Below are positions 38,977 through 45,515 of a stretch of DNA of 64,000 bases, piece by piece. Numbering within the stretch: the stretch's first letter is position 1; each line of letters opens with the position of its first letter. The notes under the pieces were generated by a model that was not told where the DNA came from, made no database searches, and saw nothing but the letters and a program-made list of their open reading frames with translations. Made by a program: the position numbers and the translations under genes. The stretch is from Bryobacterales bacterium (GTDB lineage Bacteria > Acidobacteriota > Terriglobia > Bryobacterales > UBA6623). The stretch covers positions 3,076,550 through 3,140,549 of the forward strand of contig OZ241997.1 in NCBI GenBank assembly GCA_965204435.1, written 5' to 3'.

Positions 38977-39012
38977 TGCGCCGCCGTTCCCGAGCGGCGC
39001 GGCAAAACGACC

Positions 39013-39519
39013 ATGGCAGACATCGAATGGACCGTTGAATCCCTCGGCCCGCTAATCGATGACTTTCTCAACCCCGTGCTCGACGCGGCCGACTTCGACA
39101 TCGACTACGACATATTCGAGGTGAAGGGCAAGCTCGCGGTGATCGGCCCCGAGCTGATGGTCGATTTCGAGGGCAACGACTCGCGCATGCTCCTGCACCG
39201 CCGGGCAGAGCTGCTCCTGGCCTTGGAGCAGCTGACTCTCGAGGCCCTGCGCATCCCGCACCAAGATCGCTACCGGCTGATCTTCGATGTGAACGACTAC
39301 CGCATGCACCGCATCGAAGAGCTGTGCTTGAAGGCCAAGGCCGCGGCGGAGCAGGTCAAGCAGACCGGCAAGCCGTACAAGTTCCGCCCGATGACTTCTC
39401 GCGAGCGGCGCATCGTCCATGTCACGCTCAGCGACGACGATGAGATCACGACCCTCTCCGAGGGCACTCCGCCCAACCGCTACACGGTGGTCGAGCCACG
39501 CGCCAGCGCAGAGAGCTAG
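39013..39519 (+). CDS. jag: Jag/KhpB-type RNA-binding protein (KH plus R3H domains)
   Basis: 168-aa ORF with the R3H block SRERRIVHVTLSDDDEITTLSEG, in the conserved position after yidC. Confidence 0.8.
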   Translation: MADIEWTVESLGPLIDDFLNPVLDAADFDIDYDIFEVKGKLAVIGPELMVDFEGNDSRMLLHRRAELLLALEQLTLEALRIPHQDRYRLIFDVNDYRMHRIEELCLKAKAAAEQVKQTGKPYKFRPMTSRERRIVHVTLSDDDEITTLSEGTPPNRYTVVEPRASAES

Positions 39520-39564
39520 CGGCGGCCAGCGATCGGCAGCCCCGGACAGCCCCTTGAATCGGCC

Positions 39565-40935
39565 GTGCCCCCGCTTGATCCGCATCTGTCCGCACTGGCG
39601 GCGGACACCATCGTCGCGCCCGCCACGGCTGCCGGGCGCTCAGCCTTGGGAGTGGTCAGGCTGTCGGGCAAGCAGGCGGTTGAGATCGCCCGCGGCCTCC
39701 TGCGGCGACGGCACTGGCGTCCGCGCGAGGCGGTCCTAGACCATCTGGTCGATGCCGACGGGGCACTGGTCGACCAAGTACTGGTAACGCTGTTCCAAGC
39801 GCCCGCCAGCTACACGGGCGAGGACGTGGTCGAGATCTCCTGCCACGGCTCTCCCCCCGTATTGCGGCACGCCGTCGAGCGAGCCGCCGAGCTAGGCGCC
39901 CGCCTAGCCGAGCCGGGAGAATTCACGCGGCGAGCCTGGCGCAACGGCCGCATCGACCTGGTCCAAGCCGAGGCGGTACGCGATCTGATCGACTCTGCCA
40001 CGCTCTACCAAGCCCGAATCGCCGCGCGCCAGACGACCGGGACCCTCTCCAAGCGGCTGCGAGCCGTCAAGCAGTCACTGCTAACGCTGATCGCGCGGCT
40101 GGAGGCAGGGATCGACTTTGCCGAAGATGACATCGAGGTGGAAGGCAGCGCGGCGATCGCGGCGGCGCTGGCGCTGATGCAGCAGCAGATCGGCACTTTG
40201 GTCGAAGGGTTCACTGTCGGCAAGGTAGTGCGCAGCGGCCTGCGGCTCGCCATCGTCGGCCGCCCGAACGTCGGCAAGTCCAGCCTGTTCAACCGCCTCC
40301 TGGAGCGCGAGCGGGCGATCGTCAACCCCGCCGCGGGCACGACGCGGGATGCCATCAGCGAGACTGCGTCATTTGACGGGATACCGGTGGACCTAGTGGA
40401 CACCGCGGGCATCCGGGCGACCGGAGACGCAATCGAGTCAGAGGGTGTCGAGCGGTCGTGGCAGAGCTTGCACGACGCCGATTGCGCGTTGGTCGTGGTG
40501 GACCTGTCGCAGCCCGACACGGGCGAAGACGACGAATTGTGGCAGCGCGCGAGCTCGCATTGCCCGGCGCTGCTGGTGGGCAACAAGCTGGACCTGCCGC
40601 GCCGGCACGGCAAGTCCGAAGAGCTAATCGCCGTGTCGGCCAAGACCGGCGAGGGCATCGAGGACCTGCGCGAACGGATCCGCCAGCGCACCCTGCCCGG
40701 ACTGGACAGTCTGCACGAGGGCTCGCTGGTCACCAACATCCGCCAAGAGCAGCTGCTGCGCGAGGCGCTGCAGGCTCTCGAAAGGGCATCGGACGGCGTC
40801 CGGGCGAGGGTCCCGCACGAAATGCTGTTGCTCGATCTGTACGAAGCCCTGGGACCTCTCGATGCGATCACCGGAGCGACGTCGCTGGATGACATCTTGG
40901 ACCAGATCTTCTCCACGTTTTGCATCGGCAAATAG
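39565..40935 (+). CDS. mnmE: tRNA modification GTPase MnmE
   Basis: 456-aa ORF with DTIVAPATAAGRSALGVVRLSG, the G-domain motif GRPNVGKSSLFN, DTAGIR, and the C-terminal FCIGK. Confidence 0.95.
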   Translation: MPPLDPHLSALAADTIVAPATAAGRSALGVVRLSGKQAVEIARGLLRRRHWRPREAVLDHLVDADGALVDQVLVTLFQAPASYTGEDVVEISCHGSPPVLRHAVERAAELGARLAEPGEFTRRAWRNGRIDLVQAEAVRDLIDSATLYQARIAARQTTGTLSKRLRAVKQSLLTLIARLEAGIDFAEDDIEVEGSAAIAAALALMQQQIGTLVEGFTVGKVVRSGLRLAIVGRPNVGKSSLFNRLLERERAIVNPAAGTTRDAISETASFDGIPVDLVDTAGIRATGDAIESEGVERSWQSLHDADCALVVVDLSQPDTGEDDELWQRASSHCPALLVGNKLDLPRRHGKSEELIAVSAKTGEGIEDLRERIRQRTLPGLDSLHEGSLVTNIRQEQLLREALQALERASDGVRARVPHEMLLLDLYEALGPLDAITGATSLDDILDQIFSTFCIGK

Positions 40936-41095
40936 ATCCCGTCGCGGCGCGCTGATGCATGCCCGGCTGCTGCTGCCCGCCGGCAGAAGCGTGGGCGACG
41001 TTCGCGTTGCGGCAGCGGACCCGCGCGTGAGAATCTCTTCGATCTATCGGTCGGTGCGAGCGCGTCGAGACTCGAACAGCCAAATATAATGGGAC

Positions 41096-41347
41096 TTGAA
41101 GGCCATCATCCAAGTAGCTCCCAAAAAGACCGTGCTGGACCCGCAGGGACGCGCCATTACCAAGGCCCTCCAAGGCCACGGACACGAGGACATTGTCGAC
41201 GTCCGGCAGGGCAAGTTCTTCGAGATCGAACTTGCGCAGGGGGACAGTCCCGAAGGAGTCCGGGAGCGCCTCGAGCGCCTCGCGGCGGAAGTGCTCGCCA
41301 ACCCCGTGATCGAAGACTACGAAGTGACCGTGCTGGACGCGCCCTAG
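41096..41347 (+). CDS. purS: phosphoribosylformylglycinamidine synthase subunit PurS
   Basis: 83-aa ORF from a TTG start. It contains KAIIQVAPKKTVLDPQGRAITKAL...VRQGKFFEIEL...LANPVIEDYEV. Confidence 0.9.
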   Translation: MKAIIQVAPKKTVLDPQGRAITKALQGHGHEDIVDVRQGKFFEIELAQGDSPEGVRERLERLAAEVLANPVIEDYEVTVLDAP

Positions 41348-41361
41348 CCCGGACAAGCGCT

Positions 41362-43218
41362 ATGGCCGGAATCGTCGGATACGCGGGGCGCAAGCAGGCG
41401 GCCGCAGTCATACTCGACGGTCTCCGGAAGCTCGAATACGGCGGCTACGACTCGGCCGGGCTCGCCATCGGATCCGCCAGGGGCGTGCAGTCGCGCCACA
41501 CGACCGGCACTTTGCGCAACTTGGAGACCGCGGTCCGGCTCGATCCGGTTCGCGGCACGTTCGGCGTGGGGCACACCAGTTGGATCGCGCGCCACCTCGC
41601 GCGACCATCGCCAGCGGCGGCTGCCAAGCTGTCCAAGCGGGGCATTCTGGTCGCCGTGTCCGGCGAGCCCGGCAACCTCGACGCTCTTTGGGAGCGTTTG
41701 CCGGACGGCGCCGCGCGCAGGGAAATCACCAGCACGCCCGAAGCCCTGGCGTTGCTGATTCGCAGCAACCGCAGGAAGGGCGACTCGCTCGAAGAGGCCG
41801 TCCGTCGCTCGATCGTCGACATCGAGGGCATCTGCGCCATCGCGGCCATCGCCAACGACGAGCCCGGCAAGGTCGTGGCGGCCCGGCTGGGCCAGCCCAC
41901 GCTGATCGGCCTGGGCAAGCACGAGAACTTCATCGCCTCTGACAAGCCCGCCATCCTGCACAGAACCCGCGACATGATTCAGCTCGAGGACGGCGATATC
42001 GCGGTCGTGACTTCCCGCGGGGTGCAGGTGATGGACTCGGACGGCAGCCGCCTGTCGCGCTCGGTGCATCACGTCCTGTGGGATCCGCTGATGGCCGAGA
42101 AGGGCGGCTACAAGCACTTCGTGCTGAAAGAGATCTTCGAGCAGCCGCGAGCCATCCGCGACACCGCCCTGGGCCGCCTGGACGAAGAGACCGGCAACGT
42201 GGTGCTCGACGAGCTGGGCGTGACCCTGCGCGAATTGCGGGCGGTGCGCCACTTGAACGTGATCGGTTCGGGCAGCTCGTGGCACGCAGGGTTGATCGCC
42301 AAGAACATCGTCGAGCACCTGGCGCGCGTGCCCGTGAACGTTGAGTTCGGCAGCGAGTTCCGCTACAGCGACCCGGTCATCGACGACCGGGTGCTCTCGC
42401 TGGTCGTGAGCAAGTCGGGCGAGACCGCGGACACCTTGGCCGCGCAACAGCTGGCACATGAGCTGGGCTCGAAAACCATCGCCATCTGCAACTCCATCGA
42501 TTCGACGATGGCCCACAACGCCCGCGGGGCGATTCATACCCACGCCGGCCCGGAACTGGCGGCCGTTTCGACCAAGGCCTTCAGCGCACAGCTGACAGCG
42601 CTCTACCTGTTCGCGATGTATCTGGGCCAAGCCCGCGGCAGGCTCTCTGGCGATGCCTCGCGACAGTGCGCGCACGATTTGCTGGAACTGCCCAGCAAGG
42701 TCGAGTCAGCTCTCGAGCTGGCACCGGATTGCGAGCGGGTGGCGCGCCAACTGGCGCACACGAACAAGGTCCTCTACCTCGGGCGCGGCATCCACTACCC
42801 GATCGCGCTCGAGGCGGCGCGCATGCTCAAGGAACTGTCGCACATCCAGGCCGACGCCTGCGCGGCCGGGGAAATGCGCCACGGCCCCACGGCGCTGGTC
42901 GATTCCGACATGGTCGTGGTGGTGCTCGCCACGGTGGACCAGAGCTCTCCCTCCAGCCGCCTGCGCTACGAGAAGACCCTTTCCCAGGTGCGGGAAGTGA
43001 CGGCGCGCCACGGGAGGGCGATCTGCATCGCGAACGAGGATGACGCGCGCATCGCGCAATACGCCCACGAAGTCATCCGCGTCCCGGTCATGCGCGAGCC
43101 GCTGCAGTCAGCGGTCTCGCACATCCCCCTGCAATTGCTGGCTTACTACACGGCCGTGCTGCGGGGTCGCGACGTGGACCAGCCGCGCGACCTAGGTCGC
43201 AGCATCACTGCTGACTGA
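41362..43218 (+). CDS. GlmS-like protein: two SIS domains preceded by a degenerate class-II glutamine amidotransferase domain
   Basis: The ATG at 41362 lies inside track ORF 41089..43218 (618 aa). The product is collinear with GlmS but starts MAGIVGY instead of MCGIVG. The SIS blocks SKSGETADT, VSTKAF, GEMRHGP and DVDQPR are retained. Confidence 0.8.
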   Translation: MAGIVGYAGRKQAAAVILDGLRKLEYGGYDSAGLAIGSARGVQSRHTTGTLRNLETAVRLDPVRGTFGVGHTSWIARHLARPSPAAAAKLSKRGILVAVSGEPGNLDALWERLPDGAARREITSTPEALALLIRSNRRKGDSLEEAVRRSIVDIEGICAIAAIANDEPGKVVAARLGQPTLIGLGKHENFIASDKPAILHRTRDMIQLEDGDIAVVTSRGVQVMDSDGSRLSRSVHHVLWDPLMAEKGGYKHFVLKEIFEQPRAIRDTALGRLDEETGNVVLDELGVTLRELRAVRHLNVIGSGSSWHAGLIAKNIVEHLARVPVNVEFGSEFRYSDPVIDDRVLSLVVSKSGETADTLAAQQLAHELGSKTIAICNSIDSTMAHNARGAIHTHAGPELAAVSTKAFSAQLTALYLFAMYLGQARGRLSGDASRQCAHDLLELPSKVESALELAPDCERVARQLAHTNKVLYLGRGIHYPIALEAARMLKELSHIQADACAAGEMRHGPTALVDSDMVVVVLATVDQSSPSSRLRYEKTLSQVREVTARHGRAICIANEDDARIAQYAHEVIRVPVMREPLQSAVSHIPLQLLAYYTAVLRGRDVDQPRDLGRSITAD

Positions 43219-43234
43219 GCGCGGGCTAGGCCGC

Positions 43235-44254
<1,020 letters not shown>

Positions 44255-44396
44255 GGCTGACGTCCCTCCATGAGGCCGGGCAGAACTGGGGTCTGGCTGG
44301 GCACGTTCAGTATAGCCCTGTTTGAAATTCTGTGCCCGGCTACACCTTAAACTAAGCGGAATTAAGCGGGCGGTGGCTCTGGCCGCTCCGGCAACC

Positions 44397-45515
44397 ATGG
44401 ACACGACGACCATTCGAGCGCATTTCCCTGTCACCGAGAAATACGCATATTTCAACAACGCCGCCATCGGACCGCTGTCGAGGCCGGCTGCCTTGGCGAT
44501 GCAGGGTCAGATCGAATCCGCTCTCGCGAGCGGCGTGCACGGCTACGGCGCCTGGACCGAGGAATACGCCGGGCTGCGCGTGGAGACCGCTGCCATGCTC
44601 GGCTGCTCTCCGGGCGAGGTGGCGATCACCAAAAACACCTCCGAGGGGCTGTGCGCGATCGCCAACGGGCTCGACTGGCGCAGCGGAGACATCGTGGTCG
44701 GGCTGGACAGCGACTTCCCGGCCAACTACGTGCCCTGGCGCGAATTGCAGCAGCGCCGCGGGGTGCGCTTCCGCAGCCTGGAGCTGCGCCGCGGCCTTCT
44801 GGAGCTGGAAGACTTGGACCAAGCCTGCCGCGGCGCGCGGCTGGCCGCTCTCAGCTACGTCCATTTCCTGACCGGCTTTCGCTGGGACCTAGAGGCGGTC
44901 GGGGAGATCTGCCGCCGCCGCAACTGCCTGCTCGTGCTGGACGCCGTGCAAGGCATGGGCGCATTGCCGATCGACGTCAGGGCTTGCGGCGTCCATGCGC
45001 TAGCGGCATCCGCCCACAAATGGCTGGTCGGGCCGGAAGGCTGCGGCGTGCTGTATGTCGACCGCGACCTCATGCCGCAGGTCGTGCCCGTCGAGTTTGG
45101 CTGGGCAAGCCTAGAGGGGTTCGAGGAATACCGCCACGACGGCGGCCTCCAACCGGATGCTCGCCGCTACGAATGCGGAACGTTGAACTCGGCGGGCTGC
45201 GCCGGACTGCGCGCGTCGATTGCGCTGTTGAATCGCATCGGCCCGGACTTCGCCGCGCGCCATGTCCACGCCTTGGCCGAGCAGCTGCTCTCGGGTGCGC
45301 TAGAGAAGGGCTACGAGGCTGCTGCCGAGCGGACCTACGCAAGCGGCTCGGGGATCGTGTCGTTGCGCAAGCGCGGCTTGGACTCCGCCGCGACCGTCCG
45401 AGCCCTGCTGGAGGATCAGGTGTCAGTGGCCGAGCGCATGGGCTGGATCCGCGTGGCGCCGCACGTCTACAACAGCGCGGAAGAGATTGACCGGCTGGTC
45501 CGCCTGCTGCCGTAA
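44397..45515 (+). CDS. class-V aminotransferase-fold PLP enzyme (cysteine desulfurase/selenocysteine lyase-like)
   Basis: The ATG at 44397 lies inside track ORF 44322..45515. The ORF contains YFNNAAIGPLS and the PLP-lysine region ALAASAHKWLVGPEGCG. Confidence 0.8.
   Translation: MDTTTIRAHFPVTEKYAYFNNAAIGPLSRPAALAMQGQIESALASGVHGYGAWTEEYAGLRVETAAMLGCSPGEVAITKNTSEGLCAIANGLDWRSGDIVVGLDSDFPANYVPWRELQQRRGVRFRSLELRRGLLELEDLDQACRGARLAALSYVHFLTGFRWDLEAVGEICRRRNCLLVLDAVQGMGALPIDVRACGVHALAASAHKWLVGPEGCGVLYVDRDLMPQVVPVEFGWASLEGFEEYRHDGGLQPDARRYECGTLNSAGCAGLRASIALLNRIGPDFAARHVHALAEQLLSGALEKGYEAAAERTYASGSGIVSLRKRGLDSAATVRALLEDQVSVAERMGWIRVAPHVYNSAEEIDRLVRLLP

Follow-up and report, generated by a model that had tools for sequence, protein, structure and literature searches.

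A GlmS orthologue without the active-site cysteine is retained as the sole copy throughout a genus of Bryobacterales

GlmS, the glutamine--fructose-6-phosphate aminotransferase, is regarded as a near-universal, essential enzyme that opens hexosamine and cell-wall synthesis, and as a target for antibiotics. We analysed a 64,000-nucleotide stretch of DNA from a soil bacterium of the order Bryobacterales, phylum Acidobacteriota (contig OZ241997.1, positions 3,076,550 to 3,140,549), referred to here as the window, whose coordinates are used throughout unless a genome position is given. A plus-strand gene at 41362..43218 of the window encodes a GlmS orthologue of 618 amino acids (followed by a stop codon) that lacks the cysteine of the glutaminase active site and is the only GlmS homologue of the genome. 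Judged by its residues, this protein is a GlmS by descent that lacks three hallmarks of GlmS function, namely Cys1, an intact glutamine pocket and Lys603. We consider its best reading to be that of a putative glutamine-independent, ammonia-using enzyme of fructose 6-phosphate (Fru6P) and glucosamine 6-phosphate (GlcN6P), and give this reading a probability of roughly 0.35.

The residues of the protein were aligned to the E. coli GlmS structures 4amv and 3ooj with HMMER, and were also compared in a 95-sequence MAFFT alignment. The open reading frame (ORF) begins with ATG GCC GGA ATC GTC GGA (MAGIVG), and its second codon, the GCC of Ala2 at 41365..41367, was read from the sequence where the codon of the Cys1 nucleophile is expected. 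Relative to the E. coli enzyme, the replacements are C1A, R26G, R73S, T76A, H77R, H86A, N98S, D123T, Q348K, K485M and K603R, and the retained residues are W74, G99, S303, S347, S349, T352, S401, K487, E488 and H504. Among the glutamine-pocket, oxyanion and coupling positions tested, only Gly99 and Trp74 are kept. The C-terminal LAKSVTVE tail of GlmS reads LGRSITAD, with Arg613 (codon at 43198..43200) aligned to the position of E. coli Lys603. All of the motifs quoted in an earlier, sequence-only reading of this DNA (MAGIVG, LEYGGYDS, HTSWIARH, VSGEPGN, SKSGETADT, VSTKAF, LKELS, GEMRHGP, DVDQPR and LGRSITAD) are present.

In GlmS, Cys1, exposed after removal of the initiator Met, is the glutaminase nucleophile, Asn98 is the oxyanion residue, Arg73 and Asp123 are glutamine-binding residues and Arg26 is a coupling residue. 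In the E. coli enzyme, Trp74 gates the ammonia channel, Glu488 serves as the isomerisation base and Lys603 forms the Schiff base with Fru6P. With its nucleophile, its oxyanion-hole Asn and both the Arg and the Asp that bind glutamine replaced, the 618-amino-acid protein is predicted to be one that cannot carry out canonical N-terminal nucleophile (Ntn) glutamine hydrolysis, as the sequence-only reading had also concluded. Two of the options raised in that reading, an ammonia-dependent or deaminating enzyme and a pseudoenzyme, are considered below. No upstream in-frame start that would supply a Cys was found; the upstream frame, which reads ...ARTSAM, overlaps purS in another frame.

Despite these replacements, the protein is recognised as GlmS along nearly its whole length. 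It matches TIGR01135 over residues 3-616 with 561.9 bits (cut-off 418.05) and NF001484 with 582 bits (cut-off 381), although the TIGR01135 score lies ~250-300 bits under those of its canonical relatives (756-840 bits). Pfam detects the SIS domains only, and the models of class-II glutaminases (glutamine amidotransferases, GATase) miss the N-terminal domain. Identity is 38% to the E. coli enzyme and 48-52% to canonical enzymes of the order. An AlphaFold model built on a 53-sequence alignment and compared with Foldseek has a predicted local distance difference test score (pLDDT) of 82.8 and template modelling (TM) scores of 0.87-0.88 to full-length E. coli GlmS (1jxa, 0.87) and human GFAT1. Low confidence is confined to residues 26-28, 76-92 and 196-200 and to the last 11 residues, with pLDDT <50 at residues 26-28 and 76-92; the latter stretch, the former Q-loop, is a low-complexity PSPAAAAK segment. 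The model thus indicates that the two-domain Ntn plus 2xSIS fold of full-length GlmS is retained. The former glutaminase domain (residues 1-240, 41362..42081) keeps its fold with a dismantled active site, and the isomerase domain (residues 241-618, 42082..43215) keeps its phosphate-binding and acid/base residues alongside clade-specific fixed substitutions.

The gene is not a second copy of glmS, as the term paralogue in the sequence-only reading had implied. The source genome is a single closed contig of 6,356,060 bp without Ns, estimated to be 96.8% complete, and a six-frame search of it with TIGR01135 returned the 618-amino-acid gene as the single full-length match. The other matches were a 355-amino-acid SIS-only protein, purF, MurQ and two glutaminase-part matches covering model positions 65-200. 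A hidden canonical glmS, beginning MCGIVG, was sought and rejected, with none found in six-frame TIGR01135 searches of the closed genome and of 19 congeners. In a survey of GlmS that covered 81 genomes of the order, each of the 20 species of the genus had exactly one full-length TIGR01135 match, scoring 484-607 bits, and zero canonical ones; other genera of the order score 756-840 bits.

The genomic position of the gene leads to the same view of its origin. Among the loci recovered from 19 congeners, the complete ones share the string yidC-jag-mnmE-purS-glmS-like, followed by a convergent M48 peptidase gene, an aminotransferase gene and a GH32 gene. Immediately upstream of canonical glmS, purS is present in most genomes of the order, and mnmE precedes purS as well in families f1 and f3. 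Since canonical glmS occupies the same mnmE-purS-glmS slot in sister genera, the Cys-less gene is its positional orthologue. A maximum-likelihood tree likewise places the Cys-less sequences in one clade with 100% support in the Shimodaira-Hasegawa-like approximate likelihood-ratio test (SH-aLRT), on a stem of 0.59 substitutions/site beside the canonical sequences of the family.

The adjacency to purS is thus inherited synteny that predates loss of the Cys and carries no functional meaning. The sequence-only reading had given weight to a purS that was followed by neither purQ nor purL, but an intact purQ-purL-purF cluster lies at ~3.6037-3.607 Mb of the genome (starting at 3,603,656), ~485 kb away. 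An explanation through purS linkage or an incomplete purine pathway was rejected, given this cluster and the ancestral state of the purS-glmS arrangement.

The Cys-less state is shared across the whole genus. The ORF is intact, with a conserved start, in 19/19 genus relatives with assembly coverage; the twentieth copy is cut by a contig end. It is also intact in dozens of metagenomic clusters (~48 metagenomic protein clusters were found). In a clade set of 64 sequences, comprising 17 genome copies and 47 metagenomic cluster representatives with 57-97% identity, Cys occurs at position 2 in 0/64, compared with 29/29 canonical relatives of the order. Among 37 non-redundant representatives, this position is Ala in ~62%, Ser in ~27% and Pro in ~8%. 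The survey therefore shows that a Cys-less GlmS beside purS recurs across the genus with A, S or P at position 2, and never C, rather than with Ala alone. Eight glutaminase residues vary from member to member within the clade, while none of the 27 positions inspected shows any variation among the 29 canonical relatives. Trp74 (codon at 41581..41583) is retained in nearly all clade members although neighbouring residues vary: it is W in 17/18 genome copies and in 47/47 metagenomic copies, the exception being the contig-truncated copy of G036. Because the identical state is found in independent assemblies of the genus and in metagenomic clusters, neither chance nor sequencing error accounts for it.

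These position-2 data bear on whether the protein could be a cryptic glutamine-dependent GlcN6P synthase that uses another nucleophile, exposes a new N-terminal Cys by autoprocessing or works with a glutaminase in trans. Such an enzyme would suit a genome that requires GlcN6P and has no other GlmS homologue; Ser, present at position 2 in about one quarter of members, can be an Ntn nucleophile, and the N-terminal domain has gained an invariant Cys158. However, most members carry Ala or Pro at position 2, and those with Ser have also lost R73, N98, H86 and D123, so that neither the glutamine pocket nor the oxyanion hole is left. No linked glutaminase gene is present, and relatives without any GlmS show that another route exists. 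We regard cryptic glutamine use as very improbable and effectively excluded.

Outside the genus, no other Cys-less GlmS lineage was found in the phylum among the low scorers checked from a 150-genome sample (families f18 and f16; G180 and G188 were left unchecked). The checked low scorers are all canonical and carry the CGIVG, HTRWATHG and LAKSVTV motifs.

The mode of evolution of the gene was examined with ratios of nonsynonymous to synonymous substitution rates (dN/dS), calculated by the Nei-Gojobori method from unsaturated pairs only (dS 0.15-0.5). Residues 1-240 gave 0.09-0.19 and the isomerase domain 0.04-0.08, against 0.066 and 0.074 for the respective parts of a canonical control pair (dS ~0.4). 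Both domains of the Cys-less protein are under purifying selection. Divergence relative to MnmE was 1.15x for the Cys-less protein and 0.76x for canonical GlmS, a rate ratio that amounts to a roughly 1.5-fold relaxation, concentrated in the N-terminal domain. Within the genus, MnmE identity goes as low as 58%, a level equal to that seen from family to family in the order; because this divergence is so deep, the ORF must have been intact for a long time. By the operational definition of a pseudoenzyme (catalytic residues lost, purifying selection in force), the glutaminase domain is one.

These values are difficult to reconcile with a decaying pseudogene, or with an ordinary glmS that was misread in sequencing or assembly. 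Decay or artefact would explain the lost catalytic residues, the variable glutaminase pocket and evolution ~1.5x faster than that of canonical GlmS relative to MnmE, and a decaying duplicate was among the options raised by the sequence-only reading. Yet an ORF of ~1.85 kb is intact in every covered relative of the genus (19/19) and in dozens of metagenomic clusters, dN/dS (0.04-0.19) is far below 1 in both domains, and the same substitutions recur in independent assemblies. Moreover, real decay in this family looks different, taking the form of a clean deletion or a short 5' remnant. We consider this explanation effectively refuted.

The isomerase half differs from the glutaminase half in what has been preserved. 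Ser303, Ser347, Ser349, Thr352, Ser401 and Glu488 are invariant in the clade, the last being encoded here by the Glu491 codon at 42832..42834. His504 is H in 60/65 sequences and Gln in the subclade that carries Pro at position 2. Position 603 is Arg in ~2/3 and Lys in ~1/3 of the clade, with rare L or E, and position 485 is Met, Lys or Gln, with Met in most. Judged by these residues, the sugar-phosphate site appears to be largely intact.

A second class of positions has become fixed in a new state. Eighteen columns are >=90% conserved in both the Cys-less and the canonical clades but hold different residues, among them T302S, G398A and V399A (the sugar-binding loop), L484R (37/37), I489L and N532Q. 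Four Cys residues are also newly fixed; in the protein's own numbering these are C158, C457, C500 and C555, and they replace Phe/Tyr156, Tyr/Ile454, Tyr497 and Ala/Val545, respectively. Three of the four stand in place of tyrosines that are conserved in canonical GlmS.

We hypothesize that the ancestral glmS, not a duplicate, lost glutamine hydrolysis at the base of one Bryobacterales genus, and that purifying selection would afterwards have maintained a glutamine-independent protein around a still-competent sugar-phosphate site. The isomerase domain would bind Fru6P or GlcN6P and interconvert them with free ammonia by means of Glu488 and His504. The reaction would be GlmD/NagB-II-like (reversible Fru6P + NH3 = GlcN6P) but housed in a GlmS chassis. 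The dead N-terminal domain may persist as a structural cap over the sugar site, with which the near-universal retention of Trp74 is consistent, and the degenerate, probably disordered Q-loop might leave the old glutamine pocket open to solvent ammonia. If such an ammonia-dependent route exists, as we propose, it would make glutamine-dependent GlcN6P synthesis dispensable in the family.

Several points weigh against this hypothesis. About two thirds of the clade have Arg in place of Lys603, and most of it has Met in place of Lys485, whereas the tail Lys is preserved in genuine SIS deaminases; if catalysis depends on the Schiff base, loss of K603 would impair amination and deamination. One subclade carries Gln instead of His504. 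The E. coli enzyme is known to be practically devoid of activity with ammonia. The sister genus manages without any GlmS, and therefore the protein is not needed simply for GlcN6P supply. Finally, the 18 differently fixed columns, including R484 and K348 in or near the active site, G398A/V399A and the four invariant Cys, suggest adaptation to something new more than simple retention.

Some of the same evidence would fit a non-catalytic pseudoenzyme that merely recognises a phosphorylated hexose or hexosamine (Fru6P, GlcN6P or glucose 6-phosphate) and so senses, regulates or scaffolds the metabolism of amino sugars or the cell wall. Supposedly essential residues are lost in both sites (C1 in the glutaminase, K603R and K485M in the isomerase), and the phosphate-binding residues are perfectly conserved. 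Deletion of the gene in the sister genus indicates an accessory role rather than one in core biosynthesis, and selection on both domains is what is expected if the whole two-domain shape matters. Set against this, Glu488 is invariant and His504 nearly so across ~65 sequences, and neither is obviously required for binding alone; constraint on the C-terminal domain equals that of a working enzyme; the neighbourhood holds no conserved new partner gene; and our literature searches found no published GlmS pseudoenzyme. We treat a purely binding role as a serious alternative, though a somewhat less probable one than the hypothesis above.

A further reading is that the isomerase domain has been neofunctionalised. 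It would then act on some other, probably more anionic phosphosugar, for example as a deglycase or isomerase like FrlB, AgaS or SIS enzymes of the KdsD type, and the four new Cys may form a metal or redox site. L484R (37/37), G398A/V399A, T302S, Q348K in a subclade, K603R and Cys residues 158, 457, 500 and 555 would all be signs of such a change, as would a long stem branch followed by renewed constraint. Nevertheless, scores against the hidden Markov models of candidate families are far below their cut-offs (NagB-II 108.5/430, GlmD 82.1/580, FrlB 33/430, AgaS 43/529). Comparison with the NagB-II, GlmD and FrlB profiles thus gives no membership in those families, while the cut-off of the GlmS profile is exceeded. 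Nothing in the neighbouring genes points to a new pathway, and three of the four new Cys arose from Tyr by a single transition, at seemingly buried positions, and may reflect core repacking. We count a new substrate or a metal or redox site as a serious rival, but an unlikely one.

How the family obtains GlcN6P bears on the hypothesis of an ammonia-using Fru6P/GlcN6P enzyme, and GlmS has been lost outright in close relatives of the genus. Although GlmS is near-universal in the phylum (147/150 sampled genomes), glmS has been cleanly excised in sister genus g2 in the three genomes examined at the locus (L077 of G030, L078 of G066 and L079 of G107). There, ~25-70 bp separate the end of purS from the stop codon of the convergent M48 peptidase gene, and the yidC-jag-mnmE-purS...aminotransferase string is otherwise unaltered. 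The GlmS search included six g2 genomes and returned a full-length match in none of them. In genus g7, genome G044 (L076, contig 1, 4511761-4511940) carries after purS a 5' remnant of a canonical glmS that reads MCGIVG... and then runs out of frame, followed by ~500 bp of non-coding DNA and a suf-like operon; a second g7 genome has no glmS remnant left. Because the remnant begins MCGIVG..., the loss in g7 started from a canonical gene and is an event separate from that in the Cys-less lineage. A single family has thus given up glutamine-dependent GlmS on at least two, and probably three, occasions.

GlcN6P is evidently still needed as an intermediate, since GlmM, NagA and MurQ are present in the source genome. 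The best candidate for its source in the GlmS-less genomes is a putative NagB-II-type SIS deaminase, which likely provides GlcN6P in an ammonia-dependent manner. In the source genome, this is the 355-amino-acid SIS protein at genome position C1:443794-444861 (minus strand), a NagB-II homologue that aligns with 183 bits to Shewanella NagB-II (8eol), scores 223 bits to NF046059, below the cut-off of 430, and shares the ...KVTQTL tail. Homologues are present in 15/15 genomes of g1, 7/7 of g2 and 7/7 of g7, which is every Cys-less or GlmS-less genome searched in the family. They are missing from 7/7 g4 genomes and from most g8 genomes searched, and those g4 and g8 genomes included in the GlmS search carry canonical GlmS. 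Many canonical-GlmS genomes also have the homologue, which makes its presence permissive and not diagnostic. Outside the family the pattern is weaker, as two phylum-level GlmS-less genomes also lack NagB-II.

Some further observations concern these proteins. The 355-amino-acid protein ends ...RPRMLSKVTQTL, and its gene lies downstream of msrA, outside any nag operon. By eye, the equivalents of Tyr215 and Lys219, allosteric-site residues of the Shewanella enzyme, look different in it. The acidobacterial genome G239 (single contig, 3.4 Mb, 97% complete) has no GlmS match at E <= 1e-100 and no NagB-II match at E <= 1e-10, and may represent another lineage with an unconventional hexosamine route.

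Other enzymes were considered as alternative sources. A divergent NagB-I-like protein of ~291 amino acids (C1:3409587-3410459, plus strand) has FFMDEY and GHIAFNEP motifs and scores 66 bits to TIGR00502; its gene is divergently placed beside one for a major facilitator superfamily (MFS) transporter. It was rejected as a universal alternative, being found in only 12/14 other genus members and 6/7 sister-genus genomes, less consistently than NagB-II. A role for the Cys-less protein in replacing phosphoglucose isomerase (PGI) is unsupported, as a 570-amino-acid PGI-family gene is present at C1:260618-262330.

Later steps may also depart from the usual arrangement. No bifunctional GlmU was found at the cut-off; a nucleotidyltransferase-like half lies at C1:3990090-3991507 beside a phosphohexomutase-like gene, and a separate match resembling a left-handed-helix acetyltransferase lies at C1:109126-109806. 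Synthesis of UDP-GlcNAc (N-acetylglucosamine linked to uridine diphosphate) may be organised differently in the source genome.

A broader, speculative proposal combines several of these elements. The genus and its glmS-deleted neighbours might make all amino sugars of peptidoglycan and lipopolysaccharide (LPS) without a glutamine-dependent GlmS, with a NagB-II-type enzyme aminating Fru6P with free ammonia. The former GlmS would then be a new protein with a freshly evolved site of four Cys and new basic residues around the former sugar pocket, possibly a metal or redox centre or a site with a new phosphosugar specificity. We judge this combination improbable as a whole.

The immediate surroundings of the gene are as follows. 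The tRNA modification GTPase gene mnmE occupies 39565..40935 on the plus strand and precedes purS in the conserved yidC-jag-mnmE-purS-glmS string, as established by its ORF and by tblastn synteny in 19 genus relatives and in relatives with canonical glmS. It is followed on the same strand by purS (41096..41347), which encodes the PurS subunit of phosphoribosylformylglycinamidine (FGAM) synthase, with 83 amino acids, a TTG start and a TAG stop (Pfam PF02700, E 2.7e-25; NCBIfam NF004630, 85 bits against a cut-off of 75). A plus-strand spacer of 14 nucleotides, cccggacaagcgct (41348..41361), separates the purS TAG from the ATG of the GlmS-like gene. This layout, with an ATG 14 nucleotides after purS and a GlmS-collinear protein of 618 amino acids, is the one given in the sequence-only reading, although the span 41096-43218 quoted there takes in purS as well as the 618-amino-acid GlmS-like gene. 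On the minus strand, the convergent M48-family peptidase gene (43235..44467) forms the downstream boundary of the glmS slot.

No promoter, terminator or Rfam element was found in the 14-nucleotide spacer, and co-transcription of purS and the GlmS-like gene is therefore likely on sequence grounds. An RNA regulator such as a glmS ribozyme or riboswitch was rejected, with zero Rfam matches at E <= 1 across 39000-44600. No promoter-like site was found, and the sole terminator-like site (43447-43464) is no better than those of shuffled controls. The mnmE-purS intergenic region (40936-41095, 160 nucleotides) has no Rfam match and no sigma-70-like promoter, and it expands to 600-750 bp in some congeners (e.g. 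L048, L053 and L062).

The N-terminal Cys of GlmS is held to be indispensable, and a genetic selection has been built on that requirement (PMC11822699). The protein described here is a natural counter-example, a disabled enzyme retained as the sole copy genus-wide in a family of abundant soil bacteria that has repeatedly discarded glmS. Annotation pipelines label the Cys-less proteins 'glutamine--fructose-6-phosphate transaminase', and metabolic reconstructions of Bryobacterales that rely on such labels will consequently be wrong at a key nitrogen-carbon node. In view of the residues that have been replaced, the EC 2.6.1.16 annotation appears inappropriate and should not be applied to them. 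The findings also point to ammonia-driven hexosamine synthesis in free-living bacteria, by an enzyme of the NagB-II type running biosynthetically. In addition, the family offers a natural series from canonical gene to retained Cys-less gene, remnant and clean deletion, for studies of how an amidotransferase becomes a pseudoenzyme or a new enzyme.

Our literature searches found no description of a natural GlmS of this kind. The nearest artificial counterpart is the E. coli GlmS C1A mutant (3ooj), which has the same replacement of Cys1 by Ala and still folds and binds sugar phosphate and glutamate. That protein is an engineered single mutant whose other catalytic residues are intact, whereas in the Cys-less clade evolution has taken apart the entire glutamine site, and selection has preserved the protein to the depth of a genus.

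Shewanella NagB-II (8eol, NF046059) and the GlmD proteins of archaea and Thermotoga (NF041128) share homology with the isomerase half and, without glutamine, convert GlcN6P to Fru6P and NH3 and back, a chemistry that is only proposed, by analogy, for the Cys-less protein. They consist of SIS domains only (~330 amino acids), without an N-terminal domain, and keep the tail lysine, unlike the 618-amino-acid protein with its N-terminal domain. The Cys-less protein also falls far below the cut-offs of both models (108.5/430 for NF046059 and 82.1/580 for NF041128), and a separate NagB-II homologue is encoded in the genome.

The closest relatives are the GlmS/GFAT enzymes of EC 2.6.1.16 (E. coli GlmS; 1jxa, 2j6h and 4amv; TIGR01135), with which the protein shares direct descent, the same genomic slot, length and Ntn plus 2xSIS fold, as well as the phosphate-binding Ser/Thr residues, Glu488 and His504. 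It differs from them in that Cys1, Asn98, Arg73, Asp123, Arg26, Thr76, His77 and His86 have been replaced by residues that vary within the clade. In its isomerase half, Lys603 has become Arg/Lys and Lys485 Met/Lys/Gln, the LAKSVTVE tail is degenerate, and 18 columns have been newly fixed.

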